From Candidatus Omnitrophota bacterium (GTDB lineage: Bacteria; Omnitrophota; Gorgyraeia; B26-G9): a DNA stretch of 64,000 nucleotides. Location of the stretch: the NCBI GenBank assembly GCA_043805415.1, contig JAZDHZ010000036.1:4194-68193 (forward strand), written 5' to 3'. Under the pieces are notes generated by a model. The model ran no database searches. It saw only the letters and a list, made by a program, of their open reading frames with translations, and was not told the DNA's origin. Made by a program: the position numbers and the translations under genes. Numbering within the stretch: the first letter of the stretch is position 1; every line of letters begins with the position of its first letter. Positions 27,562-63,333 of this stretch are shown one piece after another.

Positions 27562-27562
27562 G

Positions 27563-31365: not shown

Positions 31366-31376
31366 TATAAACCTCT

Positions 31377-32255: not shown

Positions 32256-32269
32256 CTCTGTTCCTTTAA

Positions 32270-33570: not shown

Positions 33571-33695
33571 ATTTTTGTTTTTCTGCTTTTCCTAATCGCT
33601 AAACGTTTATCCTGAGCAAAGTCGAAGGGCTATTCGCTAATCGCCGCTTTTTTTGTTTTTCCTAACCGCTAAACGCTAATCGCTATCCGCTGCTT
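33571..33695. repeat. Composite intergenic repeat element, copy C. It has two core copies (...TTTTTCTGCTTTTCCTAATCGCTAAACG... and ...TTTTTGTTTTTCCTAACCGCTAAACGCTAATCGCTATCCGCTG) and abuts the giant gene stop.
   Basis: Read directly from the sequence. Matches copies A and B. Confidence 0.8.
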
Positions 33696-45800: not shown

Positions 45801-48800
45801 ACCAATCCCTGAGATCGGAATTGCCACATCAAGCAGTTTTCCTGACGCGCAGGCTGAAGACAAATCAATAACCGCGAATAAATATTGGGTTGCTCCAGCA
45901 GGAATATCAATATTAAAACCTGAAAAAATTTTACTTCCTGAGGAAAAACCGCTATTGCCTACCTGGGTATCTACTTCCGGGGTGTAATCCAAAGAATTAT
46001 TTGAATCATAATACAATTTTACTGCTGAAATCTCGCTATCACTGACTGTTCCTACATTATTTAAGGTAACACTGTTTATCGTTAGCGTGCTCCCTTCATT
46101 ATTCGTAACTGAAACATCAAGAATTAAATTGCCTGTTTGGCCTACTGGGATAGTATCAGTTATTACTGGATTTGCTGTTGCTGTTGCCGCTAAGCCTACG
46201 CTAATAAAAGTCGTTGGTGAATTCTGATTATTATATTCTGTGGCAATCCATTCCGGAGAACGCGCGGTAATTGCGTAGCGTACCTCATCCAACTTTCCAA
46301 GCCAGTATTCCGTGCTATAATTTGACCAGCCAATCAAAGCTGATGTTGCTGTAGGAAATGTTGCGCTATGCGTCCCGGTTCCATGCAGAGCTCCGTCAAC
46401 ATAAAAATAAACCATTGTCCCGACTCTGCGGAAATCAACCTTATGCCATTGACCATCATTATGCGTAGCTGTTCCGCTGGAAGTAATCAATCCATTATGA
46501 TAAACCATGGCCACGCTTTGATTATAAAAACCAAATTGCGGCGCGTAATTATTATGGTCATAAATCGTTGAATATGATGCCGGAGAAGAAATATAATTAA
46601 ACCACGCGGAAATAGTATAATCCCCGGGAGTGCCCACTCCCACCGGACTGGTCTTCTTAAAGTAATCATTACTGCCGTCAAAATCTATTCCTTTGCCGAT
46701 TTTAGCGTCAATCAAATCCGTATTAGTCATGGTTCCGTAAGAAGTCATCGCGTTATTATTGGAAGTTGAATCTTTTTCCTGCGGAGCGGTTGCTGAAGGA
46801 TCATTATTTAAATGCCAGACGCCTTTATATGATGTATCCCATACTCCGCTTTTATTCTGCTGATCACTGGCAGCGCTATTTCCATAATACATATAAATCT
46901 TTGTATCTGCTGATGATAAAAGACTGGGAATTTTTACCCAGGCCACAAGGATTCCGGTTGTTTTATCAAAGCTTTCTATTTCATGATCTAATTTTGTATT
47001 TCCGTCACTGGCAGTAAAAACAATATCAAAACCATCGCTGCGGGCATTATCCCGCAATGCTGTATCTGTAATACTTATCAGTACTGGAAAATTAGTCAGA
47101 TTAGCCATGACTTTTGTCCGGTCAATTGTGATCTCTTTATGAAAAGACCAATTTGCTAGTAAAAACTGAGTGATCACTAAATTGCCTTCAGTATTATCAT
47201 CAGTCATGCCGCCGCCGCTTACCGAAATATTTATTGTCTCCGCGGTTGTGTCGGTCAAATCAAGAGTTACCACTCCGAAATCCGCGGAACCATATGTATA
47301 AGTCGCGGTATCAACACTGGCTCCGCCGTCAACAAAAGCTCCTGCGCCTTGATATTTTGACCAGGTAATTGTTGTCGCGGTTCCGGTTGTGTCAACGATT
47401 ATCGACCCGGTATAATCTGTCTTAATATTATTAAAACCATCATACGCGGCTATCGTAATATGCTCCGGCTGTCCGGTAAAAGCATTATTATCATGAGAAA
47501 TAATAAACTTAGTTAATGCCCCGGGAAGCACCTGCAATAATCCTTCACTATTATCATCAGAAGCACTGCCGGACACAGCAATATTTATTGTCTCAGTAAA
47601 AGTATCAGCCATTGCCAAAACAACAACTCCATTATCCGCAGCGCTAAATGTATAGGAACAGGTATCTGCTGATGATCCGTCATCTACAAATGTTCCGCTT
47701 CCGCTAATTTTCGTCCAATTGATTGTACTAGCTGTTCCATCAGTATCAATATATATGGTTCCAGTATAATCAGTTTTGGTCTGGCCTAATGTATCTTTAG
47801 CCGTAATTGTAATATTTTCATTTGTTCCGGCAATAGCCTGACCGTCATGCGCGATCAGGAAATGATGCAGCAATGCTGTATCAATATTCAGCAGGCCCTC
47901 GCTATCATCATCAGTTTTTCCGCTGCCGCTAATATCAATATCAATATTTTCCACCACATTATCCGTTATTGCCAGGGTTACTACCCCATTATCTAAAGCG
48001 GAAAATGTATATACAGCTGTATCCACAGCTGTACCGCCGTCATTAAATGTCCCATTACCGCTTATCTTAGCCCAGCTGATTGCCGCGGGAGTTCCGCTGG
48101 TATCGATTGTTATGGTTCCAGTATAATCTGTCTTTATCTGACCAATACTGTTTAATGCCGTAATCGTAACAGTTTCCGCTACCCCGGCATTACCCGCTCC
48201 ATCATGTACTACCCGAAAAGACCAAATAATCGCAGGCCCAACCACTAAATTTCCCTCAGCATTATTATCAATTTTTCCATCGCCGGAAACTGAAATATTA
48301 ATTGATTCCGCTGTAATATCAGTTATCGCGAAAACCGCGATGCCATTATCTGCTGAATCAAAAGCATATGTCGCGGTATCGACACTTTCTCCATTATCAT
48401 TAAATATGCCATTGCCTGTTGTTTTTGCCCAGCTGATTGCTGATGCCGTGCCATCTGTATCTAAAGTAATTGTTCCGCTATAATCACTTTTTGTATTGCC
48501 ATAGATGTCTTTTGCTGTCACTGTTACTTGCTCGGAAACTCCGGATGATGCCGCATTATCATGGCTTATCAGAAAATAATCAATTGCCGCGGCACTGACC
48601 ACCATTGTCCCTTCAGCATCAGTATCAGTTTTTCCCTCAGCACTGGCATCAATATCAATTGTTTCTTTTTTTGTATCCGTAATACTCAAAACAACAGCAC
48701 CCGCGTCAGAAAGCACAAAACCATATGTCGCGGTATCAACCGAACTGTCTCCGTCAGTAAGCACGCCATTTCCGCTTATTTTCGCCCAGCTGATTGTTGT

Positions 48801-51800
48801 CGCCGTGCCATTAGTATCCACAGTCATTGTCCCGGCATAATCGGTTTTAATATTATTATAAATATCATACGCGATAATCGTAACATTATCCGCTATGCCG
48901 GCTATGGCTTGAGCATCATGGCCAACAATAAAATGATCCAAAGCTGTTGGAGCAATCACTAGATTTCCTTCAATATCATTATCATGAATCCCTGAATCAT
49001 CAACCAAAATATTCAGCGTTTCGGCTTTAGTATCCTTAATAGTAAATATAGCCACACCATTATCATTGGGATTAAAAGTGTATTGAGCTGTATCAACGCT
49101 TGCCCCGCCTTCGCTAAAAGTTCCCAGTCCAGTACTAATCGTCCAGGAAATAGTTGTCGGAGTACCATTTGTATCAAGATTAATCGTGCCCACATAATCA
49201 GTTTTTGTCTGACCATTTGTATCTTTTGCTGTGACTTTTACGTTTTCTTTAACCCCGGCAACTCCGGCATTATCATGTTCAATAACAAACCAGCCTAAAG
49301 CAGTTGTCGAAACAACCAATGTTCCTTCAGCATCATCATCACTATGCGTTCCATCAGTTACCTCAATATCCAGATTATTTGCCGCGCTGCATGTAAGCTG
49401 CAAAACAACAACCCCATTATCCGCGGCATTAAAAGTATAAGTCGCGGAATCATTATCAACCCCATTATCCACAAAACTACCGCTGCCGCTAACCAATGTC
49501 CAGGTAATCTGGTTTGTTTCATTTAAAGTACTCAGTGTTATCTGCCCGGTAAAATCATTAACCGTACAATTGGTAATATTTTTCGCTGTAATTGTTATGG
49601 TTTCCAAAGTATTAATCAATGCTGAGCCATCATGCGTAATCACAAAATGATCTATTGCTGTATCAATAGTAAAAGTATCATTAGTATCATTAAGCATAAT
49701 ATTTCCGGCAATATCCTTTGCCGCGCTTATTGCTATTGCTGCTGTCCCATCTCCTGTAGCACTATTTATCGCGCTGCTATTATAGACAGTATATGTATCA
49801 TTCGGATTATTCGTGGTTGACCAATAACCATTAAGACTCGCGTTCTGCACGCCGGTTGCTCCGCTAGGATCATAAGTTACAATCGGATTTGTGCCGGTAT
49901 CCATTGACTCGGAAAAAAGCAGAGTAAATGTTAACTCTCCTGGCGCCCGGTGACCGCTGGGATCAGGCAAAACTCCCACACTTACTGTGGGCTTTGTTGA
50001 ATCAAATATAAAAGTAAATAATGTCGCCGCCGGTTCACTATAATGTCCCAAAGCATCAAAAGTCCGTACGCGCAAATAGTAAGTAGTACCTTCATTAGCA
50101 TCAGAAATAACATTATACTGCGCTGTAGCTTGTTCCTGAACTGTTGCCGGATTACCTTCAGGATTAATTCCCCAATAAACTGAATAACCGCTGACTCCTT
50201 GTCCATTGCCGTCAGCAGCTCCGGTCCATTCAAAATAAGGAGTTGAGTCAATTCCCTGCGGAGTATTATCCGAAATAAGCGTGTTTTTTGACGCGGAATC
50301 CCAGGCATTACACGGAATAGCAGGATTTAGCGGAGCAGTGGCATCATATTTAAAAGTAAACAAAGTAACCGGAGTGCTATAATGATTCAGATTATCAAAA
50401 GTTCTTATCCTTAAATAATAAGTACCATCTCCCATAGGAGTACTAACTTCATAATTCGCATTGCCCTGTTCTTGGTTAGTTCCAGGTGCTCCATTTATAT
50501 CAGTGCCCCAATAAACAGAATAACCGCTTAGTCCTGAACCACCGCTGTCATTGGCTCCGGTCCATTCAAAATATGGAGTATCATCCGCTTCCTGCCAGGT
50601 ATTATTACTGATCGGATTTATTTTTAAATTTGTTTGCCATGCCGCACAAGGGATATCTGGATTTAAAGGAGCGCCAACATCATAGCGAAAAGTGAACAGA
50701 GTTATCGGTTCACTGTAATTTCCGATAACATCAAAAGTTCTGACTCTTAGAAAATATACACCGTCTTCAGTTCCGGAAGAAACATTATAATTGCTAGCAG
50801 TCTGGCCTTGAGTCAAGCCTGGTTCGCCGTTCGCGTCATTTCCCCAGTAAACAGAATAACCGCTGACTCCTGTGCCGCCCGTATCAGTTGCTCCTGTCCA
50901 TTCAAAATAAGGAGTATTATCTGATTCCTGCCATGTATCATTAGATATTGGGTTTATTTTACTGCTGGAATCCCATGCGCTGCAAGGTAGCGTAGGATTA
51001 ATCGGAATAGTAGTATCAATAAAAAAAGTATCATTCCCATCCGCGACCATGATATTAGCAGCTAAATCCTGCGCGGCACTCACGCTAACTACCGCGGGGC
51101 CGTCTCCGGTTTGGGCGGTTATTGCATTATCATTATATACGGTATAAGTATCATTCATTTCCGAAGTAGTTGACCAGATGCCCCCGGTACACGGCTGAGC
51201 CAGGGTGTCTCCTTGCGGATCATAAGTTACCGACGGAGTAACTCCTGTATTCATTGTCTCGCTGAATACCAGCTTTATTTCCAGAGAACCTGATGAAATC
51301 TCCCCTACCGGGTTGGGCGTAACACTTATATTTACCGTGGGTTTAATATAATCTGCCGGCCTTCTGATCGCGAAAAGTTCCACATCCTTGGAATATACCG
51401 TTCCTCCACTGGCACGGTGCCATGCCTTTACTTCATGCTGGTTGGCATCAAAGTTAACAATAGCCATATAATTGGCATTCATATAATCCGTCAAATCTTT
51501 ATAGTCTCTGTATTCAGTTGCCTGTATAACATCTGTTGCCGGATCAGCCGCGTCATGCGAAAATTCGTGGTATTGTAGGTAAGAAAGACTGCTTGTCCGT
51601 CCAAATGCCTGGCCGATAATCAGATACTCTCCAGGAGTATCTGCCGGGATTGTTGCCGTAGCCAAAAGCTGGTTTGATGTTGAGGCTGTAGAAGCTTGTG
51701 AGCTTGCGTACTGTTGATCCAAAAAGAAATCATATATTCCGGACAACCGCATAGCAAATATTCTCTGTTTACGGATAGTGCCACTAGTCGCGTCATCCAT

Positions 51801-52640
51801 CCTCGACTCAAGGCCTATGCTATGCGAGCCCGCGCTAAGATTTACCACTGAAGTTATAAATACCGGCTGCCAGTCAGTAGTATCCTGCGCTTCCAGCATA
51901 TAGTGCCGATTTGCCGCATCCGCGTAAGGCTTATACGTACTGTTATCAATATTTATCCTTATTTGCGAAGAGTCTGAGACATTATTAACATCCAGTTCAC
52001 AATACCCCATAATCAGATACTGTCCGGCAGAAGCGGGACTGATACTTAAAGAAGCTCCCAGATTTTCCCAGACCATGCTGGAAGTCATCGCATAACTTGC
52101 CGCGCCGGCATCAGTATCATAAGCATATTGATAACCGGTTTGCGAATTAATCGGGATCGCGATAAGCCGGGAACGCTTTACGCGAGTCGTGGTACCATCA
52201 TCATTGCGGTGGTCAAAATCAACGTACTGCGAACCACTTAAATTTTGCGCCACATAAAATCCGGAAACAGTTGTATAATTAGTTATGTTTACTGTTTCAA
52301 TTTTAACCGCGTCATTAGCTGAATATCCCATCAACTGAATACTGTTATTCAATTGAACCTGCAATTCCACACTATCAGCAGCAGTAGCTCCTTGCCACTC
52401 CAATTCCCACATGATCAGCCAATCAGTATTCGGCTCGGCAGTCCATCCCAAAGTATTATGTTCCGTCCAGGTTGTTGTGCTTGTACTGGTTTGTTCATTG
52501 AGGTTTTCACTGCTATACCATACATCATAAGCTCTAGCAGAGGGAGAAAATGCGCCTATCAGCAAAAAACAAAACAAAATTAAAAAGAGAATTCTGTGGG
52601 ATTTAGCAATCTTAAGTTTTTTAAAAAAATAATTTCTCAT
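39801..52640 (-). CDS. N-terminal ~4280 aa of the giant secreted adhesin. It has a signal peptide, two ~200-aa N-terminal beta-rich domains, three FN3-like modules, ~21 Ig-like 119-aa repeats, and an embedded DUF2341+LamG (MshQ-like) module.
   Basis: The start was set at the second Met (MRNYFFKK...), preceded by GGGGAAGGG. Signal peptide RILFLILFCFLLIGAFSPSARA. The repeats are seen directly. The DUF2341-like segment is WSFHKEITIDRTKV...NFPVLISI...IYMYYGN and the LamG-like segment is ...ISAWFNY...QWHKVDFRRVGTMVYFYVDG. The frame ends at a TAA 37 nt after a C5 tract. Confidence 0.85.
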   Translation of the reverse strand: MRNYFFKKLKIAKSHRILFLILFCFLLIGAFSPSARAYDVWYSSENLNEQTSTSTTTWTEHNTLGWTAEPNTDWLIMWELEWQGATAADSVELQVQLNNSIQLMGYSANDAVKIETVNITNYTTVSGFYVAQNLSGSQYVDFDHRNDDGTTTRVKRSRLIAIPINSQTGYQYAYDTDAGAASYAMTSSMVWENLGASLSISPASAGQYLIMGYCELDVNNVSDSSQIRINIDNSTYKPYADAANRHYMLEAQDTTDWQPVFITSVVNLSAGSHSIGLESRMDDATSGTIRKQRIFAMRLSGIYDFFLDQQYASSQASTASTSNQLLATATIPADTPGEYLIIGQAFGRTSSLSYLQYHEFSHDAADPATDVIQATEYRDYKDLTDYMNANYMAIVNFDANQHEVKAWHRASGGTVYSKDVELFAIRRPADYIKPTVNISVTPNPVGEISSGSLEIKLVFSETMNTGVTPSVTYDPQGDTLAQPCTGGIWSTTSEMNDTYTVYNDNAITAQTGDGPAVVSVSAAQDLAANIMVADGNDTFFIDTTIPINPTLPCSAWDSSSKINPISNDTWQESDNTPYFEWTGATDTGGTGVSGYSVYWGNDANGEPGLTQGQTASNYNVSSGTEDGVYFLRVRTFDVIGNYSEPITLFTFRYDVGAPLNPDIPCAAWQTNLKINPISNNTWQEADDTPYFEWTGANDSGGSGLSGYSVYWGTDINGAPGTNQEQGNANYEVSTPMGDGTYYLRIRTFDNLNHYSTPVTLFTFKYDATAPLNPAIPCNAWDSASKNTLISDNTPQGIDSTPYFEWTGAADGNGQGVSGYSVYWGINPEGNPATVQEQATAQYNVISDANEGTTYYLRVRTFDALGHYSEPAATLFTFIFDSTKPTVSVGVLPDPSGHRAPGELTFTLLFSESMDTGTNPIVTYDPSGATGVQNASLNGYWSTTNNPNDTYTVYNSSAINSATGDGTAAIAISAAKDIAGNIMLNDTNDTFTIDTAIDHFVITHDGSALINTLETITITAKNITNCTVNDFTGQITLSTLNETNQITWTLVSGSGSFVDNGVDNDSATYTFNAADNGVVVLQLTCSAANNLDIEVTDGTHSDDDAEGTLVVSTTALGWFVIEHDNAGVAGVKENVKVTAKDTNGQTKTDYVGTINLDTNGTPTTISWTISTGLGTFSEGGASVDTAQYTFNPNDNGVAIFTIKDTKAETLNILVDDSGIHDNDIEGNLVIAPTALDHFIVGHDAQAIAGIADNVTIIAYDIYNNIKTDYAGTMTVDTNGTATTISWAKISGNGVLTDGDSSVDTATYGFVLSDAGAVVLSITDTKKETIDIDASAEGKTDTDAEGTMVVSAAAIDYFLISHDNAASSGVSEQVTVTAKDIYGNTKSDYSGTITLDTDGTASAISWAKTTGNGIFNDNGESVDTATYAFDSADNGIAVFAITDITAESINISVSGDGKIDNNAEGNLVVGPAIIWSFRVVHDGAGNAGVAETVTITALNSIGQIKTDYTGTITIDTSGTPAAISWAKISGNGTFNDGGTAVDTAVYTFSALDNGVVTLAITDNVVENIDIDISGSGKTDDDSEGLLNIDTALLHHFLIAHDGQAIAGTNENITITAKDTLGQTKTDYTGTIYIDTDGTASTINWTKISGSGTFVDDGSSADTCSYTFSAADNGVVVLAMADTFTETINIAVSGSASDDNSEGLLQVLPGALTKFIISHDNNAFTGQPEHITIAAYDGFNNIKTDYTGSIIVDTTGTATTITWSKYQGAGAFVDGGASVDTATYTYGSADFGVVTLDLTDTTAETINISVSGGGMTDDNTEGNLVITQFLLANWSFHKEITIDRTKVMANLTNFPVLISITDTALRDNARSDGFDIVFTASDGNTKLDHEIESFDKTTGILVAWVKIPSLLSSADTKIYMYYGNSAASDQQNKSGVWDTSYKGVWHLNNDPSATAPQEKDSTSNNNAMTSYGTMTNTDLIDAKIGKGIDFDGSNDYFKKTSPVGVGTPGDYTISAWFNYISSPASYSTIYDHNNYAPQFGFYNQSVAMVYHNGLITSSGTATHNDGQWHKVDFRRVGTMVYFYVDGALHGTGTHSATFPTATSALIGWSNYSTEYWLGKLDEVRYAITARSPEWIATEYNNQNSPTTFISVGLAATATANPVITDTIPVGQTGNLILDVSVTNNEGSTLTINSVTLNNVGTVSDSEISAVKLYYDSNNSLDYTPEVDTQVGNSGFSSGSKIFSGFNIDIPAGATQYLFAVIDLSSACASGKLLDVAIPISGIGFSNGKKLGSAVLNSSGTRQTYIGLDHFLISHDGAAIAGLDENITIIAKDAYGNTKTDYTGTITVDTNGTPESITWSKYAGSGVFNDGGVSLDTAIYTFTQSDAGVVVLNISDEIAEIINISASGDGKSDDNTETDLTVSAGLVNHFIVSHDGSGIAGAGEIISVTVKDSFGNTVNNYSGQITLGTNGSVDDINWTLDSGSGVFFNNGAGAGTAIYTFDPSDTGLARFEIVDNKAETLNIIAVGDGKYDDDSEGDLIIAPGELNHFVISHEGQAIAGNAEAISITALDGFGNIKNNYTGTINLDTTGTATKITWALNTGNGIFTDNGASLDTATYTFNALDNGTAVFNLTDTKTETINISVSAGSVTDDNTEGNLVITSGDIDHFVINHDGIATTDVSEQVMITAYDAYENIKDDYTGVTTLDTTGTVTTISWTLISGEGVFNDAGSSADTATYTFVPADAGIVILSIIDYTAESVNISVSGDGKNDSNNEGDLVFVSSGIDHFLIVHDGNAIAGIGESISIYAKNANGDTLTSYGGQITIDTTGTSGTIAWALQSGNGTFNDSGADADTCSYMYDDSDLGVVVLTITDSSEESVNISVSGEGKSDNNTEGNLVFNPAGLHHFTITHDGNAVAGIADTVTIAAKDANNNTLTAYTGQIDLDTTGTATTISWAKITGNGSFSDGGALADTATYSYVASDNGTCVLSITDTIVESLNISVSGAGKSDDDKEGTLTVGPGAIDYFSINHDGSAVAGIADNITIVAYDSYGNIKTNYTGQISMDTNGTAGTITWAKATGLGTFVDGGASVDTATYTFLAADNGQCILKITDTTAESLNISVTGDGKTDNDSEGNLIVGPTSIDHFVVNHDGNAEAGVAETVTIKAYDSYLNIKDNYTGTITLDTNGTATTITWLKITGNGVFTDNGALVDTATYTYADSDDGIVVLSVSDTKKENIDIDVFGGGKTDNDSEGNLIVGPTSIDHFVIIHDGNAEAGVAENVTVRAYDLYSNIKDNYTGTITLDTNGTATTITWSKITGNGTLADGGALVDTATYTYADSDDGIVVLAITDTKKEVINLAVFGDGKNDTNAEGDIIIGPSLIDHFTIFHDGSAVVNLGESITIYAKDVWENIKDNYTGQITLDTNGTPTAIDWTLTAGVGVFQDGGASLDTALYTFSDADDGMVVLSLNDSTAETINILVSGDGKSDDNTESNLVINPVGGLNTGYLSPTANSGNFTSPANAYANDASRATSYNGQSQQYYNYGVNIPAGSTILGIAVQLDAYASSTTGLTQGLVELSWDGGTSFTTTGKITPDMITSEVTYVLGGPTDVWGRTWTVDNFTNANFRVRINASTPSTTIYLYLDWIPARIYYELPPDAIANAVSTTPIAAGASNVLSLDVTVTNTASQARVINSLVINNTGTLSDTEISSLKLYYDSNNSNDYTTGVDNQVGSGVFNSGTKTFTGLNISVPASGSEDIFVVCALAQTVNDADTLDIQIPVNGISFVYGVQIEDTVLNSAGIIPVSLALDHFVIQHDQSAITGIPEQITLTARDIYGNIKTSYSGTITLDTTGTATAITWAKVTGNGIFTEGGASVDTATYAFSASDNGTAVFSLVDNKAESINISASGDAKTDDNTEGNLVIASGGIDHFLITHDAAAIAGIAENVTVTAKDAFNNTVSNYTGQINLDTNGTAAGISWQLLTGFGIFTDGGQGVDTATYTFNASDNSTATFALTSTTAESLNIAVTGDSKSDDNTEGNLVVSAAVLDHFLLAHDGAAQAGILDTITITAKDQYGNTKKNYTEQITLDTNGTVSTITWAKISGNGTFVDGGLSVDTATYVYSLADDGVVVLSLQDTTLEQLNISVSGSGKTDDDTEGMLNVGPGIIDHFSIVHDGFALQNQPESIIIKAYDAYNNIKTDYTGLITVDTDGTANAINWALSTGNGVFNDGGASVDTATYTFAGADNGQVTLLLTDTVSEIINIAVSGDAKTDDDYEGGFGSSCRGISSF

Positions 52641-52702
52641 TTTACCCTTCCCCACCAACATATTTAAATACTATTTATAATTGATATAAAACACTAAACT
52701 AA

Positions 52703-52722
52703 TCAAGCAATTAATGTGCCAA
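52703..52722 (-). promoter_or_regulatory. Sigma-54 (-24/-12) promoter for the giant gene: TTGGCAC-ATTAA-TTGCT on the minus strand.
   Basis: Reverse complement of 52705-52724 reads TATTGGCACATTAATTGCTT. It has the GG-N10-GC spacing and a near-consensus TGGCAC/TTGC. It lies ~65-80 nt upstream of the MRNYFF start codon (52638-52640). An NtrC-type activator is encoded 1.2 kb upstream. Confidence 0.6.
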
Positions 52723-52883
52723 TATGGATTATAAAAACATGTTTTACCAAACTCATAACATCTTAATTTTAAGCACTTTATGAATAGCGATTTTTAGTAA
52801 ATAATTTACAATTCAAATTAAATTAAATAAGTGTGTAAATATCACCTCATTGTGTATTATTTTACACGCTTAACACAGTAAAA

Positions 52884-52914
52884 CTAACATTTCAAGCAAT
52901 GCTCATTATGTTAT
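52884..52914. promoter_or_regulatory. 29-bp imperfect palindrome TAACATTTCAAGCAATGCTCATTATGTTA (left copy). It overlaps the 3' end of the HUH-HTH gene, ~180-210 nt upstream of the giant-gene sigma-54 -24 element.
   Basis: Outer TAACAT/ATGTTA and inner AGCAATGCT dyad symmetry. A 28/31 match to the copy at 53844-53874. Confidence 0.5.
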
Positions 52915-53801
52915 ATTTGGTTATTATGGCTGGTAGCAGGATTACTGATTAGCTTGCGGGAAATAAGCTGTCGGCTTTTGTGTAACATTTTGGCGATTTC
53001 TGAAATTGTACAGCCGTTAGAAAGTAGCTGCTCCCCTAGATATTTTATAGCCGCTACATCTTCCGGTTGGGTAAAGTGCTTGATTTTTTTAGTTCTTTCT
53101 ATTTCATCACATAGCTTCAAGGTATCTTCATCTACGTTATCTACCTTATTTTTTGACTTCATGTAATATGCAAATTCCAGCCTAAACTTATTTAAGGCAT
53201 TTAAATCCTGAGAGATAGTATTTAGTTGTACATTTATAGCATCGTTTATTAAATTAATATATATTTCTTTTGATTTCTCAGTATTGGCGTTTAACATATT
53301 TAAGATAAAATCGCAATCAACAAAACTTTGCCTGCTAATTCTGTCTACAAATAAATTTAAAGAACTCCACCTGTATTTACCTAATTCCTTTATTAACCTT
53401 GCTTTAAGCGGATTCAAATGAATATACAAAGATATAGCAAGCAAATATTTCTCTTTTAAACATAAACACGCCCTAAAAGGCTTACAAAAAACCGGACCTT
53501 TTCTTGAGTATTTCGCATTAAGATATTTAGCGTATTTTTCAAATAAATATTTTGCTCCCAACGAAAGATTTTCATCTTCTATTTGAACCAATAAATGCAA
53601 ATGATTAGGCATCAAGCAAAATGAGAATATCTTCCAGTTAAATTTCTGCGGAATACTTTTTAACAATGAAAGCATGTAAAGATAATCGCTATCTTCTAGG
53701 AATAGCACCTCTTTCCCCGGCGCCCGGTGAGTAATATGATAAATAGCATTAGGATAGATTATTCTGTCCCTGGACAGCGGAACCCCTTCTATCTTTCTCA
53801 T
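52911..53801 (-). CDS. IS200/RAYT-like HUH (Y1) domain protein with a C-terminal DnaA-domain-IV-like HTH. Possibly a domesticated regulator or a small IS200-like element.
   Basis: YHITHRAPGKEVLF...FCLMPNHLHLLVQIE for the HUH motif, and KYSRKGPVFCKPFRA for the Tyr motif. The C-terminus CTISEIAKMLHKSRQLISRKL is HTH-like. Confidence 0.78.
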   Translation of the reverse strand: MRKIEGVPLSRDRIIYPNAIYHITHRAPGKEVLFLEDSDYLYMLSLLKSIPQKFNWKIFSFCLMPNHLHLLVQIEDENLSLGAKYLFEKYAKYLNAKYSRKGPVFCKPFRACLCLKEKYLLAISLYIHLNPLKARLIKELGKYRWSSLNLFVDRISRQSFVDCDFILNMLNANTEKSKEIYINLINDAINVQLNTISQDLNALNKFRLEFAYYMKSKNKVDNVDEDTLKLCDEIERTKKIKHFTQPEDVAAIKYLGEQLLSNGCTISEIAKMLHKSRQLISRKLISNPATSHNNQI

Positions 53802-53824
53802 TCATCCTCCTTTCTCTCGATATA

Positions 53825-53874
53825 ATTTTAAACTAGATTTCGTAACATTTCAAGCATTGCTCGTTTTGTTACTT
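53825..53874 (-). promoter_or_regulatory. Right copy of the 29-bp palindrome (TAACATTTCAAGCATTGCTCGTTTTGTTA), overlapping a sigma-70-like promoter (-35 TTGAAA, 17-bp spacer, -10 TAAAAT) for the HUH-HTH gene.
   Basis: On the minus strand: ...GAGCAATGCTTGAAATGTTACGAAATCTAGTTTAAAAT... followed by RBS AAAGGAGGA and the ATG. Confidence 0.45.
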
Positions 53875-53882
53875 GTAGGGAA

Positions 53883-55262
53883 TTAGCGGGGTTTTAGCTT
53901 GTGGGTTTTTAATTTCTTGTGCAGGTTCCTTCTGTCCAGGCCTATCTCTTTTGCTGCCCGGCTCACATTTCCTTCATGCCGCATAAGGGCCTCTGTTAAG
54001 AATCTCTGCTCAAAAGCCTCGATCGCCCTTTGCTTTGCTTTTTTAAAATTAAGCGTCCGCGACTTATCTCTTAGCTCAGCAGTCTGAGCAGTTCTCACAA
54101 CCTGCGGCAAATCAGCCAAATCAATCTTATTTTCTGTAGCCATAACCACAGCACGATGCACAATATTTTCTAATTCCCGCACATTGCCAGGCCAGGAATA
54201 ATCCATAAGAATTTTCAGCGCCGCACTGGTCATTCCCTCGACTTTTTTTGCTTCAATCCGGTTATACTTTAAAATAAAATGCTCCACCAGCATGGGAATA
54301 TCTTCCGCTCTATCCATAAGCGGTGGAATCCATAAAGGCACGACATTTAAACGATAGAAAAGATCCTCCCGAAAAGTACCTTTTTTTACCGCGTTTTCAA
54401 TATTTTCATTACTTGCCGCGATTAGCCGCACATCAACTGTCCGATTTAAGGCCTCGCCAACCCGCTTAATCTGCCCGTCCTGAAGAACTCTTAACAGTTT
54501 TGCCTGCACTTCTTTGGAAATATGCCCGATTTCATCCAGGAAAATTGTTCCGCCATCAGCCACTTCAAACAAGCCTTTTTTATCCTGACTTGCTCCGGTA
54601 AAAGCACCCCGGATATGGCCAAATAATTCACTTTCCAGTAAACTTTCAGTTAAAGCCGCGCAATCAACCGGCACAAAACTCTTTTCTTGTCTTGGACTTA
54701 AAGCATGGATTGCCCTGGCAACCAGTTCTTTTCCTGTGCCAGTCTGGCCTTGAATTAAAACCGTGCTTTTCGTGGGAGCTACTTTCTTAATCAATTCAAA
54801 CATTTTAAGCATAAACGCATTTTCCGAAATAATATCAGAAAAAGTATATGTTTTTTTAAGCTCTTGGCGCAAAGCTAAATTTTCCGCTTCCAGCCGCTTC
54901 TTTTCCAAAGCTTTATCTATAACAATCAATATTGCCTCAATCTCAAAAGGCTTTGAAAGATAATCATATGCCCCGGATTTTATTGCCCGGATAGCGTTTT
55001 CCATTGTGCCATATGCTGTCATCATAATAACTATTACCTGGGGAAACTTGGCTTTTATTTTACTTAAAAGCTGCAAACCATCCATACCCGGCATCTTAAA
55101 ATCAATTATTGCCAAATCCGGAACCTGCTTTTCAATTAATTCCAGGGCAACATTGCCATTTTCAGCAGTTGTAACTTTATAACCATTATCAATAAGCAAT
55201 TTATTTAAAAACTGCCTCATGCCTTGCTCATCATCTACAACTAAAATATGCTCTTTTTTCAT
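53883..55262 (-). CDS. Sigma-54-dependent response regulator (NtrC/PilR family: REC + AAA+ + Fis-type HTH).
   Basis: REC domain (DDEQ...D in IIDFKMPGMDG), Walker A GQTGTGKE, GAFTGA motif, ESELFGH, and a C-terminal HTH. Confidence 0.93.
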   Translation of the reverse strand: MKKEHILVVDDEQGMRQFLNKLLIDNGYKVTTAENGNVALELIEKQVPDLAIIDFKMPGMDGLQLLSKIKAKFPQVIVIMMTAYGTMENAIRAIKSGAYDYLSKPFEIEAILIVIDKALEKKRLEAENLALRQELKKTYTFSDIISENAFMLKMFELIKKVAPTKSTVLIQGQTGTGKELVARAIHALSPRQEKSFVPVDCAALTESLLESELFGHIRGAFTGASQDKKGLFEVADGGTIFLDEIGHISKEVQAKLLRVLQDGQIKRVGEALNRTVDVRLIAASNENIENAVKKGTFREDLFYRLNVVPLWIPPLMDRAEDIPMLVEHFILKYNRIEAKKVEGMTSAALKILMDYSWPGNVRELENIVHRAVVMATENKIDLADLPQVVRTAQTAELRDKSRTLNFKKAKQRAIEAFEQRFLTEALMRHEGNVSRAAKEIGLDRRNLHKKLKTHKLKPR

Positions 55263-55271
55263 TATTAATAT

Positions 55272-57227
55272 TTATCCCTTAATTGGTAACAATACTTCTA
55301 CTGAGGTACCTTTACCCCATTGACTTTCAATTTTTATATCTCCTCCATGAGCCTGGACTATGCCATAGCTTAAAGATAATCCCAATCCTGATCCCTTACC
55401 CTGATCTTTTGTGGAAAAGAATGGCTCAAAAATTCTATTTAGATTCTCTTTGGGAATTCCTTCCCCAGTATCTTTAAACAAAACTTTTATTTGATCACCC
55501 GCTCTTTGGGTTGAAATTTTAAGACTGCCGCCTTGCGGCATACTTGCTTCTGCATTCAGAATAATATTTATAAACACCTGCTCAAGATGGATCTGATCAG
55601 CTAAAACACTTGGTAAATTTTCCCCTAGGATTTTAGTAATTTCGATATTTTTATTTAAAATCCGGTTTTGGGTAAAGATTAAAGCATTTTCAATTGCCTG
55701 ATTAATATCCACAAAAACCATCTGCATTTGCTTTTCGCGGGCAAACTGGATTAAACTGTTTACAATATATGAGCAACGTCTTGTATAGCTTTCAATTGTC
55801 TCAAGCAGCTGGATTGATTCCTGAGGATTAGCTAAAGATTTTTTTTCTTTTAATTCTTTTATCAGCATTTGCGCGTGCCCCAAAATTACACCCAAGGGGT
55901 TATTAATTTCATGCGCAATCCCTGCGGATAGCACCCCGAGTGAAGCCATTTTTTCCGATTCAATCAGCATTTGCTGTTTGGCATTAAGATCCTTGGTTAC
56001 TTGTTCAATTTTATCTTGCAAACGCAGATTCCAATCTTCAATTTCTTTTTTAGAACCAGCTAATTCATCGGACATATGATTAAACGCGCGGGTTAAATCA
56101 CCAATCTCATCATTAGAAAAGATCATAACTTTTTTGGAAAAATCTCCCTGAGCAATGGCTTTAGTCATCTTTATAAGCTCATGAATTGGTCCAATAATCG
56201 ACAGCTTGAAAAATATTCCGATTATAAGCACAAACGCGCAAATAATCACAAAACTCATTAGAATAATCGAATTTCTCCGCGCGCGAATCAAGGAAAACAC
56301 TTGCTCTGATGAAATCAAAATCCCTACCGCGCCCAGTGATTTCTTTTGATTGTCTAAACTAATATAAAGCGGACTAATAATCTCCGTTAAATATTCCTTT
56401 TCCCCCACTTTATGCTTTATTACTTTTTCATCTTGCATCACCTTAAGATAAATTGATTTTTCTTGCTCGTTTAGCGCTAAATTACCGCGCCCTTTAGTCG
56501 CGGATATTAAAAACTGCAAATCTTTTAAAAATATTTTTATATCGCGGATTTCTTTATCTTTGAGCATATTACCGATTAAGTCTTCCAAATAAGTAGAATT
56601 TCTTTTAACCTCAGCTAAAACAAGTTCCAAAGATTTTGAAAGTGATGTCGCAAATCTTAAAGCTTCCTCTTTGTAGTAGGCATTGCGATTTTTTCTTAAG
56701 GCTGTAACAATCTCTCCTTTTTGCGAAGGAAACCTTGCTTTCATCTGCATAATCCCCAGCAGCTCATTCTTATTTATATCAGAGGCAAATAAAGGCAGAA
56801 AATGGATAACAATCTCCCGCCCCAACTCAGATTTAACAATAGCTCTTGAGCGCTTAGTTTTAAGCACATCATCAATTATTGATATATACTGAACCTCTGG
56901 CACTGATCCAATTTGATGTTCAGAACTAGCGGCAATAACAACTTTTTCTTGGGCAATAATTACAATTTCTTCAATATCTTCATTGCTCTGAGTTAATTTT
57001 TCTACGTTTTGTTGCAAAGCCTCATAGGCTCGCAAATTACTTCCCAGGATATTATCAAGATGCGCCCCGAGAATAGACGAGAATAACCCAGCCTTATCCA
57101 GGATGCGAGCTTTAAGCTCTTTGGTCTGCATACTGATTAGAAAGGAAAATACTGCGGCAATAATCACCACAATAATAACTATCTGGATTGTAAGTTTTTG
57201 AATCAGCCGATTATTCATAGCCCTCAC
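55272..57227 (-). CDS. Sensor histidine kinase with two TM helices flanking a ~280-aa periplasmic sensor domain, then HAMP, HisKA and HATPase_c domains.
   Basis: H-box HEINNPLGVI. N, D/G boxes (LNAEASMPQGGS, DTGEGIP, GSGLGLS). Confidence 0.9.
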   Translation of the reverse strand: MRAMNNRLIQKLTIQIVIIVVIIAAVFSFLISMQTKELKARILDKAGLFSSILGAHLDNILGSNLRAYEALQQNVEKLTQSNEDIEEIVIIAQEKVVIAASSEHQIGSVPEVQYISIIDDVLKTKRSRAIVKSELGREIVIHFLPLFASDINKNELLGIMQMKARFPSQKGEIVTALRKNRNAYYKEEALRFATSLSKSLELVLAEVKRNSTYLEDLIGNMLKDKEIRDIKIFLKDLQFLISATKGRGNLALNEQEKSIYLKVMQDEKVIKHKVGEKEYLTEIISPLYISLDNQKKSLGAVGILISSEQVFSLIRARRNSIILMSFVIICAFVLIIGIFFKLSIIGPIHELIKMTKAIAQGDFSKKVMIFSNDEIGDLTRAFNHMSDELAGSKKEIEDWNLRLQDKIEQVTKDLNAKQQMLIESEKMASLGVLSAGIAHEINNPLGVILGHAQMLIKELKEKKSLANPQESIQLLETIESYTRRCSYIVNSLIQFAREKQMQMVFVDINQAIENALIFTQNRILNKNIEITKILGENLPSVLADQIHLEQVFINIILNAEASMPQGGSLKISTQRAGDQIKVLFKDTGEGIPKENLNRIFEPFFSTKDQGKGSGLGLSLSYGIVQAHGGDIKIESQWGKGTSVEVLLPIKG

Positions 57228-58239
57228 TTATTAAGAATTGTTTTTGTTTTATTGTCTCATAAACTGCTGCATTAAGGCAAGCAATGCTTGATATCCCAAA
57301 AGCGTCACCGTCTTCAAGATAGGCTAAGCCAGGGCATCTTGTGCAAAAACATGATAGCTTGCAATTATTACATTGCTCAATATTTATTTTTTTTCTCAGC
57401 TTAGTTAAAAATTTCGAATTTGCCCAGATGTCTTTAAAATCAGCTTCAAAAACATTGCCTAATTTTTCCGGAAGCTGAATACAAGGATAAACATCGCCTT
57501 TGGCCGAAATACTGGCCATAACAGTCCCCGCAGGACAAGTAAAATCATCCGCAACTTGATTTTGAAAAACAGCTTTTTGCTTTAATAATGCATCTTGATA
57601 AAAAGCACCCAGCTGCTCCTCAGATAAGCGGTAAATTAAAACATCCTTTGATCCGTCATCTTTAGGCGAAACAATTGGGTCAATAATATAAGGCACCTTA
57701 AGCTCATTTGCCAGTTTAATCACATCTTTATACTCAGCAAAGTTGTCTTTCATTAATGTGCATTTTAAATTAACCGGAATTTGCTCATTTTTTAATAAGC
57801 TTATCGCGTTTATTGATTTAGCAAAAGCTCCTTGGCAGCCAGTAATCTTGTCATGGGTTTTTGCCGACGCGCCTTGAATACTTATCCCTACTTCACTTAG
57901 ATTTAATTTCTGAATAGTCTTAATATTACTCTGATTTATTAAAGTACCATTAGTAAACAGTGATAAGTCAAAGCCGCTTTGGCGCAAATAAAAACATATA
58001 TCAAAAATATCCTGTTTTGTAAAAATCTCACCGCCAGTTAGCGATAAAAACAAAGTCCCTGCCTGCCTTAATTGCCTGGCAATATCCTTAACCTGAGCAA
58101 AACTAAGTTCGGCATTATCTTTAAAATTATAACAGTGACAACAACTAATGTTGCAGCGCCTGGTCAGCTCAAGAACAACACTAATTGGGATTGCTTTTTT
58201 CTTTAAATCTTCTTTTACTTTATCCCAGATAGTTTTCAT
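57211..58239 (-). CDS. Radical SAM/SPASM-domain enzyme (peptide-modifying maturase type).
   Basis: CNISCCHCY (CxxxCxxC) plus the C-terminal SPASM cysteines CPAG...CIQL...CNNCKLSCFCTRCPG. Confidence 0.88.
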   Translation of the reverse strand: MKTIWDKVKEDLKKKAIPISVVLELTRRCNISCCHCYNFKDNAELSFAQVKDIARQLRQAGTLFLSLTGGEIFTKQDIFDICFYLRQSGFDLSLFTNGTLINQSNIKTIQKLNLSEVGISIQGASAKTHDKITGCQGAFAKSINAISLLKNEQIPVNLKCTLMKDNFAEYKDVIKLANELKVPYIIDPIVSPKDDGSKDVLIYRLSEEQLGAFYQDALLKQKAVFQNQVADDFTCPAGTVMASISAKGDVYPCIQLPEKLGNVFEADFKDIWANSKFLTKLRKKINIEQCNNCKLSCFCTRCPGLAYLEDGDAFGISSIACLNAAVYETIKQKQFLISEGYE

Positions 58240-58243
58240 TTAA

Positions 58244-58519
58244 TTATCCAGTTATTTCAATTATCGATTTTTCTGATAATTCTTTTAGAAAAATCTCAAC
58301 ATCTTCTTGTATTTGCCAAGGCGGAGCATCATACTCTGCTTGGATTTGTTCGAGCAATTCTTTCTGCTTTATTGGATTTTCAATCAATTGCCAGATTCTT
58401 CCTCCTACACCTTCGAGAATATGCATTTTTCTAGTTTGGCTTGTTACTACAATAATATTCTCTTCAACCTGCTGCCAAGCTGCTTGGCTGTTCCGCACTA
58501 TTGTTTTTGCTGATTCCAT
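58244..58519 (-). CDS. PqqD-family protein (RiPP recognition element-like peptide chaperone).
   Basis: The 91-aa length and the pattern ...AAWQQVEENIIVV...MHILEGVGGRIWQLI...ELLEQIQAEYDAP...EDVEIFLKELSEKSII fit the PqqD fold signature. Confidence 0.68.
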   Translation of the reverse strand: MESAKTIVRNSQAAWQQVEENIIVVTSQTRKMHILEGVGGRIWQLIENPIKQKELLEQIQAEYDAPPWQIQEDVEIFLKELSEKSIIEITG

Positions 58520-59285
58520 TAATTATCCTCCTAAGATCAAAATTGAATAAATCAACCCTATATCCGCGAATACAATCGCATACAGACTTAACCTGATTGA
58601 TTAACTTCTGATTAGATTCATCATCCCAGGCAAAAAAGAAAATATTTGCCAATAGATTAGAAAACGTTTCCATTTTACTTAAAACCCTAAAACCATTAGG
58701 TATATTTTTACTTAAAAATGATATCATCTGCAAATAAACACATTGACTTGATATTGGCCCATCAAATTCACCTTTAAACGGAGTTGAAAAAAGATAAACC
58801 TTGCCATTCACGTGTCTGATAATAACTAGTTCATCACTCAGAACTTGAAAATCTTTGGCCATTTTTGCTGTGGTTGTTTTCCCGCTTTCTGATGCCCCGG
58901 CAAATAAATAACCATTATCTTGGCAAGCCAGCCCAACCGAATGCACAAGAAAACCATTATTTTCTAATAATACAACGGAATAAAATACCCGTAAAAAACA
59001 ATTAAAAACCCCTGCTAAATCAGCTAAATGCACTTTTGCGGTCTTATGCTCCACATTTATGCTGCCGATAAACTCATCGCCTTGTACTTTAAACACCGCT
59101 TTTTTTTTAAAAACACTGATTGAATCTATTTCTTGAGGGGTATAATCATGGATGACTTCAATTAAAAAATAATCACTGCTGTCTTTGGCTTGGACAAATG
59201 CGCTAAATTCCTGGGCGATTTTTTTAATAAAATCAAGATCGTCACTTTTGATTTTTAAGCATATCCCGCCAATTGATAAATACAT
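58464..59285 (-). CDS. HprK-related kinase-like P-loop protein (HPr kinase C-terminal-domain-like), a family often clustered with PqqD and radical SAM genes.
   Basis: P-loop AGASESGKTTTA and the ~270 aa length. The 56-nt overlap with pqqD suggests translational coupling or a later start. Confidence 0.62.
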   Translation of the reverse strand: MYLSIGGICLKIKSDDLDFIKKIAQEFSAFVQAKDSSDYFLIEVIHDYTPQEIDSISVFKKKAVFKVQGDEFIGSINVEHKTAKVHLADLAGVFNCFLRVFYSVVLLENNGFLVHSVGLACQDNGYLFAGASESGKTTTAKMAKDFQVLSDELVIIRHVNGKVYLFSTPFKGEFDGPISSQCVYLQMISFLSKNIPNGFRVLSKMETFSNLLANIFFFAWDDESNQKLINQVKSVCDCIRGYRVDLFNFDLRRIINGISKNNSAEQPSSLAAG

Positions 59286-59312
59286 AGATGAGCTCGCTTT
59301 GCTTTTAATAAC

Positions 59313-60470
59313 TTAGACCCCAATAAGCTTAAACATTTTTCTGATTCCGTATAAGCTCATTGCGAAAAATCGCTTTAAATAATGCCAGAATGTTATTTTT
59401 TCAACTGCTAAATGAAAAAATTGCTTATCAATAAATATTGACTGCCAAAGGCATTTTAGTTTAGCAATAAATCCTTTTTTTGAAAACAAATAAAGCAGTT
59501 CTCCAGAGACATCTCTTCGTCTATTGTGCATTAACATATCTAGTGACCTTTTCTCAAAACTATTTAGTTTCAAGCATGAGAATTCCTTAATTAGCTTTTG
59601 AGGAACAGGCAAAATTCCATTAGCATCCAGATATTTTAATATGTAAAAAACAGGCTTTTCCAAACCATACTGCCGGGATTTTAAAACTAACTTATCCCAA
59701 TCAAAGTTATCTTTGCAATCAGATATAAGATTGCGAATATCATAAAACCAGATCAGCCTTGAAAATGAATGCTCTTGTAAATGCGCGCAACAATTAATTA
59801 CCGCGTCGTAAACTGATAAGGTTTTCACATAAACACTATTGCTTTTAGAAGCAATTGCTTCCAGCCAAATAACCGTGTTTTTTATATTTGGAGAATAAGG
59901 ATTTTGCGCTAATTTGTAAGAGCAGATATAATCCGCATGTAAATCAATAAATAAAGCACTATTATCAAACAAGTAGGGATAGCCTTTCGGGTGCTGATAT
60001 CCCAGACTTTCCAGTAAATTTTTAACTTTAGATATATCCTCTTTATGAATAACCAGATCCACATCACTCATACTTCGACTGCCCAGGGGATATATTCTAT
60101 TCAAAAAATCAGCACCCCGCAGTAATAATACCGCTATTTGATGCTCTTCAAAAGCTTGGATCACATTTTCCAGATGCGTAGTAATTAATAAATTTCTACC
60201 AAGATTACGCATATAATTCTGTTTAATTTCATACAATACCCATTCAGGCAATTTACTATTCAGCCCCCATTTACTAAGGTTATCAAACAATAAGCCATCA
60301 ACTCCTTCGGCAAAAACCTTTTTTAAAAACAAATGCCAGTTAAAATAAGGCAGATTAACTCGGTCTATTGCCTGTTGACAGTCAGAAGGATTGCGCAAAC
60401 AAGCAATAAGCATCTTGTCTATGGCCGCGGCAGAATTTACAGCATTTCTATAAATATTCATATTATTCAA
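59313..60470 (-). CDS. NTP_transf_5-family (uncharacterised nucleotidyltransferase) protein.
   Basis: LLLRGADFLNRIYPLGSRSMSDVDLVI matches the characteristic G-x-R-x-M-x-D-x-D-L-L-V core. ~385 aa. Confidence 0.65.
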   Translation of the reverse strand: MNNMNIYRNAVNSAAAIDKMLIACLRNPSDCQQAIDRVNLPYFNWHLFLKKVFAEGVDGLLFDNLSKWGLNSKLPEWVLYEIKQNYMRNLGRNLLITTHLENVIQAFEEHQIAVLLLRGADFLNRIYPLGSRSMSDVDLVIHKEDISKVKNLLESLGYQHPKGYPYLFDNSALFIDLHADYICSYKLAQNPYSPNIKNTVIWLEAIASKSNSVYVKTLSVYDAVINCCAHLQEHSFSRLIWFYDIRNLISDCKDNFDWDKLVLKSRQYGLEKPVFYILKYLDANGILPVPQKLIKEFSCLKLNSFEKRSLDMLMHNRRRDVSGELLYLFSKKGFIAKLKCLWQSIFIDKQFFHLAVEKITFWHYLKRFFAMSLYGIRKMFKLIGV

Positions 60471-60473
60471 TTC

Positions 60474-60956
60474 TTAGGTTTGTCTTTGATAAGATAAAAA
60501 AGAGATTAAGCCTCTGACTATCTTTCTTAGCAGTCTTATCGGAATATAAAGAAAAGCTCCTATAATCATAAATCTCGAGATCAAAAAACCAGAGCGTCTT
60601 GCAGAATTAGTATCTAATCTTATTCTTTTCCTACCACTTTTTTTTTCAGCCACTTTCCCGATTAAATCTTGTTCGCGAACCGGCAAGTCAGGAAAAATCA
60701 AAGCATCTGCTTTGGTTTGAAAACTAGCCTTGTTGATTTTAAAAACCCGATGACAAAGCATCCGGCTTCCATTATAAGTTAAAACTATTTCTCCCACAGC
60801 AAGTTGTTCGACTCGGCAAGGAACAAGCTGGATAATATCCCTGCTTTTTAAAAAAGGATACATCGAATTGCCAATAACTGTTATCTGAAGATTACCTTTT
60901 CTTAGGATATCACGCTTATATGTTTCTGCCCGCGCAGCCTGAATAGCATTTTCCAT
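60474..60956 (-). CDS. S24/S26-family serine peptidase (signal peptidase I / LexA-like catalytic domain).
   Basis: VIGNSMYPFLKSRDIIQLVP Ser-nucleophile motif, a later Lys, and a C-terminal hydrophobic helix. Confidence 0.6.
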   Translation of the reverse strand: MENAIQAARAETYKRDILRKGNLQITVIGNSMYPFLKSRDIIQLVPCRVEQLAVGEIVLTYNGSRMLCHRVFKINKASFQTKADALIFPDLPVREQDLIGKVAEKKSGRKRIRLDTNSARRSGFLISRFMIIGAFLYIPIRLLRKIVRGLISFLSYQRQT

Positions 60957-60958
60957 TA

Positions 60959-62541: not shown

Positions 62542-63333
62542 ATGAGTAATTCAGATATTATACAAGTCAGGAATGTCGAGAAATCTTTCTTTCCCGTGCT
62601 AACTCTAGGGGATATCCTGGGAATTAGACTAAAAAGAAAACCGCCTGTTAAAGCTTTGGAGGATATCAGCTTTCAGTTAACTGCCGGCAAAATATTAGGC
62701 ATTCTCGGACCAAACGGAGCGGGTAAAACCACTTTATTAAAATGTCTTTGCAATTTAATTATTCCGGATAAAGGCACAATACTTATCGATCAATATTCTG
62801 GCGATAAATACCCGGCTAAAATAAAATCCCTGATTGGTTTAGTGGACAATGAGGAACGAAGTTTTTATTGGCGCTTAAGCGGCATGCAAAACCTAGAGTT
62901 TTTCGCTGCTTTGTACGGGTTAAGCCCTAAACAGACAAAACTTAGGATCACTGAGCTTTTATCTATTTTCAATATAGATTTCATGCTCAAACGTTTTGAT
63001 ACTTACTCGACTGGAATGAAAAGAAAGCTTTCGCTATTAAGAGCAATCATCCACAAACCTAAAATACTTTTAGTTGATGAGCTGACTAAAAGCCTTGATT
63101 TTGATACAGCCTTAAGCTTATATAAATTTATTAAGAATTTAAGCAATAATGGCACGACGATTATCTTAACCAGTCACAATATTCCTGAAGCAGAAAATCT
63201 CTGTAATACATTCATGCTGCTGGTGAAAGGAAAAATCTCAGCCATGGGCAATCTTGAAGATTTACGCCGGAAATTTAAAACCGCAAACGCGTCCTTAACT
63301 GATATTTACAAGATGGTGATGGAAAATGCTTAG
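62542..63333 (+). CDS. ABC transporter ATP-binding protein (ABC-2 exporter type).
   Basis: Walker A GPNGAGKTT, signature TGMKRKLSLL, Walker B LLVDEL. Confidence 0.88.
   Translation: MSNSDIIQVRNVEKSFFPVLTLGDILGIRLKRKPPVKALEDISFQLTAGKILGILGPNGAGKTTLLKCLCNLIIPDKGTILIDQYSGDKYPAKIKSLIGLVDNEERSFYWRLSGMQNLEFFAALYGLSPKQTKLRITELLSIFNIDFMLKRFDTYSTGMKRKLSLLRAIIHKPKILLVDELTKSLDFDTALSLYKFIKNLSNNGTTIILTSHNIPEAENLCNTFMLLVKGKISAMGNLEDLRRKFKTANASLTDIYKMVMENA

Follow-up and report, generated by a model that had tools for sequence, protein, structure and literature searches.

A likely sigma-54 module dedicated to one very large secreted protein of Omnitrophota

When would a bacterium express a gene of 18.9 kb, and what would tell it to do so? 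The question is raised by a locus of a Candidatus Omnitrophota bacterium (GTDB class Gorgyraeia, B26-G9), of which we analysed 64,000 nucleotides (GenBank assembly GCA_043805415.1, contig JAZDHZ010000036.1, positions 4,194 to 68,193). This stretch is hereafter the window; coordinates are those of the window unless a related locus is named, and (+) and (-) denote its strands. The giant gene lies at 33695-52640 (-) and would encode a secreted protein of ~6,330 aa. An original prediction, made from the letters of this DNA by a model, held that a sigma-54 promoter drives this gene, that a neighbouring NtrC-type two-component pair is its likely activator, and that expression depends on a signal. 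The conservation of promoter and enhancer and the synteny in related loci support these claims. It is likely, judging from these comparisons of sequence, that kinase, activator, enhancer and promoter form a sigma-54 module dedicated to one very large secreted Omnitrophota protein, and the costly giant protein would then probably be made only on signal.

The first piece of evidence is the promoter. The 271-nt non-coding spacer ahead of the giant gene (52910-52641, -) holds TTGGCACATTAATTGCT, in which TGGCAC (52721-52716) and TTGC (52710-52707) form an exact TGGCAC-N5-TTGC. This sigma-54 -24/-12 element, TGGCACATTAATTGC (52707-52721, -), has its GG doublet at 52720-52719 and its GC doublet at 52708-52707, 10 bp apart. 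Read one base further, as TGGCACATTAATTGCT (52721-52706, -), it ends in TTGCT and matches 11 of the 11 positions of the consensus TGGCAC-N5-TTGCW. It stands on the coding strand, 67-81 nt 5' of the ATG at 52640 (MRNYFF), so the element that had been placed ~65-80 nt upstream of the giant gene is indeed there, and as an exact motif. A scan of both strands returned it as the single exact match in 64 kb. The number of exact matches expected is 0.10 per window from dinucleotide shuffles and 0.058 per window from base composition; the latter estimate comes down to 0.0066 for all DNA outside open reading frames (ORFs) and to 1.2e-4 for one strand of this spacer. When the scan of the window was relaxed to GG-N10-GC plus at least 9 of the 11 consensus positions, no second intergenic candidate appeared and all other matches fell inside coding regions. 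As a usual rule, sigma-54 transcription starts 12 nt past the GC doublet. By this rule the predicted start would be at ~52695, giving a 5' untranslated region of 55 nt.

The second piece is the activator. A gene for a 459-aa sigma-54 enhancer-binding response regulator lies on the same strand at 53883-55262 (-), its stop codon 1,243 nt upstream of the giant gene ATG, where a GAFTGA activator had been proposed at ~1.2 kb. The domain set is complete: a receiver (REC), an AAA+ domain with GAFTGA and a Fis-type helix-turn-helix (HTH), with Pfam matches to Response_reg (E-value 3e-33), Sigma54_activat (7e-70), AAA_lid_14 and HTH_8 (9e-11). The key residues are intact (GAFTGA, Walker A GQTGTGKE, FLDEIG and Asp54), and these motifs are conserved in the orthologues described below, with the exception of one locus, L082, which reads GSFTGA. 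The best NCBIfam matches are AtoC (471.8 bits against a cut-off of 714), NtrC, NtrX, the PEP-CTERM regulator (PEP_resp_reg, 411.5 against 502.6) and ZraR (393.9 against 760). Every one is under its curated cut-off, and no PilR model is among the top 25 matches. From these sub-threshold scores we take the activator to be a generic NtrC-family enhancer-binding response regulator and not an identifiable PilR. Its best match among solved structures is NtrC1 of Aquifex (PDB 1ny5, E-value 6e-102). This similarity extends to the coiled-coil linker and suggests, by analogy, that the unphosphorylated receiver domain may hold the ATPase inactive.

Ahead of the activator, at 55272-57227 (-), is a gene for a 651-aa membrane sensor histidine kinase, composed of a first transmembrane segment, a periplasmic domain of ~280 aa, a second transmembrane segment, HAMP, HisKA and HATPase_c. 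The hydrophobic segments at residues ~7-36 and ~317-352 enclose the ~280-aa region, bearing out the large periplasmic sensor domain that had been claimed. The kinase also stays below the NCBIfam cut-offs (AtoS, 211.8 bits against 646; T2SS_HK, 155.3 against 450), and a homologue search with the sensor domain found two relatives only. A structure prediction of the sensor (AlphaFold, from a three-sequence alignment) gave a mean predicted local distance difference test of 36 and was unusable. A relaxed Pfam scan of the same region returned a sub-threshold Cache_WalK match (E 0.012), and we make no claim of a Cache domain. The first 17 nt of the kinase gene are shared with the end of the radical-SAM/SPASM gene upstream of it.

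Related loci show that these elements occur together beyond the window. No record identical to the activator turned up when its exact sequence was looked up. The closest match among genomes is L001, a 2.5-kb contig of a Candidatus Omnitrophota metagenome-assembled genome (MAG) whose activator is 92% identical, the next genome match being at 47%; on L168, a second contig of this MAG (GCA_018817585.1), the upstream cluster is found again and likewise ends in the kinase. Scanning metagenomes with the activator gave L081 (81% identity) and L082 (62%), with all others at or below 50%. Searching for homologues of giant protein residues 431-1000 and looking up their context added three more independent loci, L161, L163-166 (one locus seen in four samples) and L167. 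The six orthologous activators are 59-92% identical to each other, forming a tight family that is distinct from all other homologues, for which identity is 49% or less, and orthologous kinases precede the activator in L001, L081, L082, L163 and L168. In all four of the other loci with downstream DNA (L081, L082, L163-166 and L167), the orthologous activator is followed by a perfect -24/-12 element on the same strand. The background for this arrangement, an exact same-strand site within 1.5 kb downstream, is 11 of 151 unrelated activator loci.

Including the window and L161, six of six independent loci (window, L081, L082, L161, L163-166 and L167) match the consensus at 11 of 11 positions, and the five spacer bases and the flanks vary. 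Each element stands on the coding strand and 24-161 nt ahead of a start codon, that of a gene whose product has a signal peptide. This product is a giant-protein homologue in five of the six loci; the L082 protein, of which 119 aa are available, matched none of the others. The activator is upstream of the promoter in every locus that has upstream DNA. Three distant giant-protein homologues (L169-L171), taken as negative controls, have no activator and no near-consensus sigma-54 site. This pattern bears on the possibility that the conserved TGGCAC-N5-TTGC is the site of some other factor, or a repeat element, and resembles a sigma-54 promoter by coincidence. These spacers do contain repeats and hairpins, as such an explanation would have it. 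Yet the element is present in one copy per locus instead of being dispersed like a repeat, it is kept at precisely the 11 consensus positions amid varying bases, and it is always on the coding strand, just 5' of the gene and beside a GAFTGA activator. GAFTGA activators are known to work only with sigma-54. We consider a coincidental resemblance very improbable.

A candidate enhancer, or upstream activating sequence, is found between promoter and activator at 52831-52872 (-). It is made up of a palindrome, GTGTAAAATAATACAC (52867-52852), plus TTTACACAC (52839-52831) as a third half-site. A 12-nt inverted repeat is formed by the outer arms, TAAGCGTGTAAA and TTTACACACTTA, and the motif occurs once in the window. 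The block is conserved in four loci (window, L081, L161 and L167) whose flanking spacer has diverged, and an alignment of the four spacers leaves two conserved islands only, the enhancer block and the -24/-12 element. In L081, the stop codon of the activator (1683) is directly followed by TGTGTAAAATATTACACA, then by TTTACACAC, the promoter (1832-1846) and an ATG at 1895, which opens an ORF running to the contig end; its product aligns collinearly with the giant protein from residue ~430 on, at 68% identity over 570-607 aa. The transcription start predicted for L081 is at ~1858. In L167, whose activator is 78% identical, the enhancer also comes directly after the stop codon, followed by the promoter and a giant homologue, and the palindrome reads GCGTAA-N4-TTACGC, its two halves having changed in a symmetrical way. 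L161 has a giant-gene homologue with promoter and enhancer-like block, its upstream gene being cut by the contig end. Measured from the predicted start, the palindrome is centred at -164.5 and the third half-site at -140.0; the two values are the same in the window and in L081 despite compensating indels in between.

A palindrome behind a stop codon could also be the terminator of the activator operon, an explanation that we rejected. Its predicted RNA folds are not the same from locus to locus, a search of 52500-54000 gave no hairpin with a T-run behind it, and in the window the distance is kept to the promoter and not to the activator stop codon. With a block that stays with the promoter, folds that differ and no terminator-like hairpin, a protein-binding enhancer fits better than a terminator, and we infer that the activator would bind at 52831-52872. 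A further shared sequence, GGTGGGAT, common to L082 and L163, was dismissed as an enhancer, its distances differing between the two loci.

The sigma-54 promoter might be real and yet be activated by an enhancer-binding protein encoded elsewhere, with the adjacent pair controlling, for instance, its own operon together with the radical-SAM/PqqD cluster above it. The overlap of the kinase gene with the radical-SAM gene and the conserved synteny upstream mean that the pair could belong functionally to that cluster. Nevertheless, activator and promoter are found together in five of the five loci with upstream DNA, across 59-92% activator identity, and even where another gene intervenes, as in the window and L163. 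The latter locus reads kinase, activator, a 734-aa membrane/TPR protein, promoter and giant homologue. In addition, the window offers no other intergenic sigma-54-like site on which the activator could act. An activator encoded elsewhere is thus unlikely. The extra gene of L163 (3227-5431), with many membrane segments and C-terminal TPR repeats, is a second case of a gene tolerated between activator and target.

The first case is in the window itself. The two-component pair had been described as immediately upstream of the giant gene, which it is not: a gene for a 296-aa protein resembling REP-associated tyrosine transposases intervenes at 52911-53801 (-), between activator and enhancer. Its product, a Y1_Tnp domain with a C-terminal HTH, scores 35 bits with Pfam Y1_Tnp and 61.8 bits with NCBIfam REP_Tyr_transpos, against a cut-off of 80 for the latter. 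On either side the gene has a copy of a 20-nt direct repeat, GAGCAWTGCTTGAAATGTTA (53862-53843 and 52904-52885, -), and it is missing from L081 and L167. It is not part of the regulatory module and looks like a lineage-specific insertion that spared the enhancer-promoter unit; having inserted upstream of the enhancer, it left the geometry between enhancer and promoter intact. The 20-nt repeat belongs to a hairpin, GTAACA...TGTTAC, and the same block is found after the activator stop codon in L001. L082 has a similar hairpin, GGAACA...TGTTCC, and a hairpin-forming element, GGAACAAAAYAAGTCTGAC...GTTCC, at 1815-1850 and 2120-2160, on either side of its promoter, one copy being inside the 149-nt leader. 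A second Y1_Tnp ORF is present at 3596-4753 (-) of the window.

One can also suspect that the giant gene is mainly read through from upstream sigma-70 promoters, the sigma-54 element being a conditional boost only. A 10/12 sigma-70-like site (TTGAAA-N17-TAAAAT) does precede the transposase-like gene at 53853-53825, and a simple pattern search of 52500-54000, which can miss terminators, found no terminator-like site between activator, transposase-like gene and giant gene. However, L081 and L167 are without the transposase-like gene and its promoter block and have nonetheless kept a perfect sigma-54 element and the enhancer. Within the spacer, the sole sigma-70-like match is of 9/12 and overlaps the start codon. 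That read-through should be the main source of giant-gene transcripts is, in our estimation, quite unlikely.

Taken together, we propose the following sequence of events for the dedicated sigma-54 module. The membrane kinase (55272-57227) would sense a periplasmic signal through its ~280-aa domain and phosphorylate the NtrC-family activator (53883-55262). The activated regulator would bind the inverted-repeat enhancer (52831-52872), ~140-165 bp upstream of the start, and its GAFTGA loop, with ATP hydrolysis, would open the closed complex of sigma-54 RNA polymerase at TGGCAC-N5-TTGC (52707-52721). Transcription of the 19-kb gene would then begin near 52695.

Five observations weigh against this proposal. 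First, there is no rpoN within the 64-kb window, and the presence of sigma-54 in the genome would be implied solely by the conserved GAFTGA activator. Second, a GTGTAAA-type enhancer is not recognisable in L082 or L163, the HTH regions of both activators differing too; the same observation would suit an activator encoded elsewhere. Third, enhancer spacing is not strictly fixed: the two centres are at ~-170.5 and ~-144 in L167, and the third site of L161 is at ~-139. Fourth, with no intrinsic terminator detected, read-through from upstream promoters could contribute to expression of the giant gene. Fifth, the giant gene of this assembly carries a frameshift.

This frameshift divides the gene into two ORFs (39801-52640 and 33695-39868) that overlap by 68 nt and meet at a G5 run at ~39845 (GAAGGGGGTTTTGG). 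The junction falls inside one copy of a ~120-aa repeat, whose consensus there is SGDGKxDDDxEGxLxV......HFxIxHDG. A junction at a G5 run within a single repeat unit points to one gene of ~6,330 codons with a 1-nt indel, which may be an error of assembly in the homopolymer or else a real frameshift or pseudogene. The description of the target as a ~19 kb adhesin gene stands as to length, although the gene is split in two in the assembly. That the product is an adhesin is a reasonable guess from its signal peptide and weak domain matches (DUF2341, LamG and a C-terminal PQQ-type beta-propeller in Pfam). The protein has an N-terminal, Sec-type signal peptide, an orphan head of ~430 aa, FN3-like modules, ~120-aa Ig-like repeats and the C-terminal beta-propeller. 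No N_methyl match, the mark of a prepilin N-methylation motif, was found in it.

The head is the part that varies. Residues 1-500 of the giant protein had no match in a homologue search, hence the orphan status of the head. Heads of 250-430 aa at the N-terminus of the window protein (51351-52640, -) and of those of L081 (1895-3004) and L167 (1503-2255) are without detectable similarity to one another, and L161 and L163 have a common, different head (Pfam AF_1625_C). Dissimilar heads behind a conserved promoter and enhancer, and in front of conserved FN3-like modules, suggest that heads are swapped on a conserved stalk. Extending this, the kinase-activator-sigma-54 module might tentatively be seen as a conserved switch, reserved for turning on a family of very long surface proteins of Omnitrophota whose N-terminal heads are swapped between close relatives. 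Were this possibility true, the costly protein would be made only when the periplasmic sensor detects a cue derived from a host, a prey or a surface. The variable head would set target specificity, with the flanking machinery of type II secretion system (T2SS) and type IV pilus (T4P) type exporting or displaying the protein. Giant-protein biology would then have its first regulatory entry point in this uncultured phylum.

How does this arrangement compare with known ones? NtrB/NtrC-glnAp2 and the NtrC1/DctD subgroup have the same REC, AAA+ (GAFTGA) and Fis-type HTH domains in the activator, and likewise an inverted-repeat enhancer, here a candidate one, 100-200 bp from a -24/-12 promoter and a cognate kinase encoded beside the activator. 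They differ at both ends of the pathway: NtrB is cytoplasmic, whereas the kinase here sits in the membrane and has a large periplasmic sensor, and what would be controlled is not nitrogen or dicarboxylate metabolism, as in NtrC/DctD-type systems, but one 19-kb gene encoding a secreted protein. PilS/PilR-pilA is alike in joining a sigma-54 two-component activator to a surface-structure gene in a T2SS/T4P gene neighbourhood. PilS spans the membrane with six helices, is without a periplasmic domain and detects pilin inside the membrane. The kinase here, in contrast, has two membrane segments, a ~280-aa periplasmic domain and HAMP, and the target is not a major pilin but a protein with a Sec-type signal peptide and no prepilin motif. 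Of the NtrC/PilR-type system first put forward, the NtrC family therefore holds, whereas PilS/PilR holds as an analogy only, with a kinase that is not PilS-like and a target that is not a pilin.

For a giant surface protein as the target, the nearest parallel is FleQ, a regulator of the enhancer-binding-protein family that governs lapA, the gene of a giant, repeat-rich adhesin on the surface of Pseudomonas. FleQ responds to c-di-GMP and lacks a receiver domain that could accept a phosphoryl group, and the lapA promoter is reportedly sigma-54-independent. For the locus described here, in contrast, the prediction is of a phosphorelay and a -24/-12 promoter that are both canonical.

Giant and long proteins of Omnitrophota flanked by T2SS and pilus genes have been surveyed before (bioRxiv 10.1101/2023.11.21.568195, 10.64898/2026.06.07.730766). 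The present protein is from the same phylum and is likewise a very long secreted repeat protein flanked by T2SS/T4P and transposase-like genes. Those surveys focus on proteins of >30 kaa (thousand amino acids) with many membrane helices, whereas this one has ~6.3 kaa and a signal peptide only. A term search of both papers found no sigma factors, rpoN, promoters, two-component systems, response regulators or transcription, and literature searches for Omnitrophota with sigma-54 or rpoN gave nothing relevant. The regulatory mechanism appears to be textbook, while such a target, and a control dedicated to it and coupled to it in evolution, seem to be without precedent in the literature searched. 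The value of the finding comes from what is controlled and from how tightly the two have evolved together; the principle is not new, and giant-protein expression becomes directly testable. With a sigma-54 promoter that is conserved along with a kinase and an activator of its own, one would expect at least one family of very long Omnitrophota proteins to be inducible and not constitutive.

Downstream of the giant gene are genes for a beta-propeller protein and for minor-pseudopilin-like proteins; PilM/N, PilO, GspC-like and secretin genes are on the opposite strand, and GspE/F and more pseudopilins lie farther off. Overall, T2SS/T4P-like genes surround it at 13726-17673 (-), 24461-29931 (+) and 30153-33403 (-). 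The set comprises GspE/F, GspJ/K/I-like pseudopilins, a 689-aa ORF with both PilM and PilN domains, PilO/GspM, a GspC-like protein and a secretin, and also includes a ParA-like ATPase, a DUF7305 protein and a PQQ-type beta-propeller. In the relaxed scan of the window, no sigma-54-like site precedes these T2SS/T4P-like genes. Rfam and tRNA scans of the window were empty.

Beside pseudopilin genes, at 5377-12725 (-), is a glycosyltransferase/WbqC/PIG-L cluster that contains a second radical-SAM/SPASM gene (11568-12725). The cluster above the kinase, at 57211-62359 (-), encodes a SurA-like protein, an S24/S26-like peptidase, NTP_transf_5, an HprK-related/ScmC-like protein, PqqD and the radical-SAM/SPASM enzyme; it is conserved in L168 (2074-7217). 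This cluster resembles a peptide-maturation set, in which no precursor peptide was identified. Beyond it, a divergent ABC transporter gene is found at 62542-63333.

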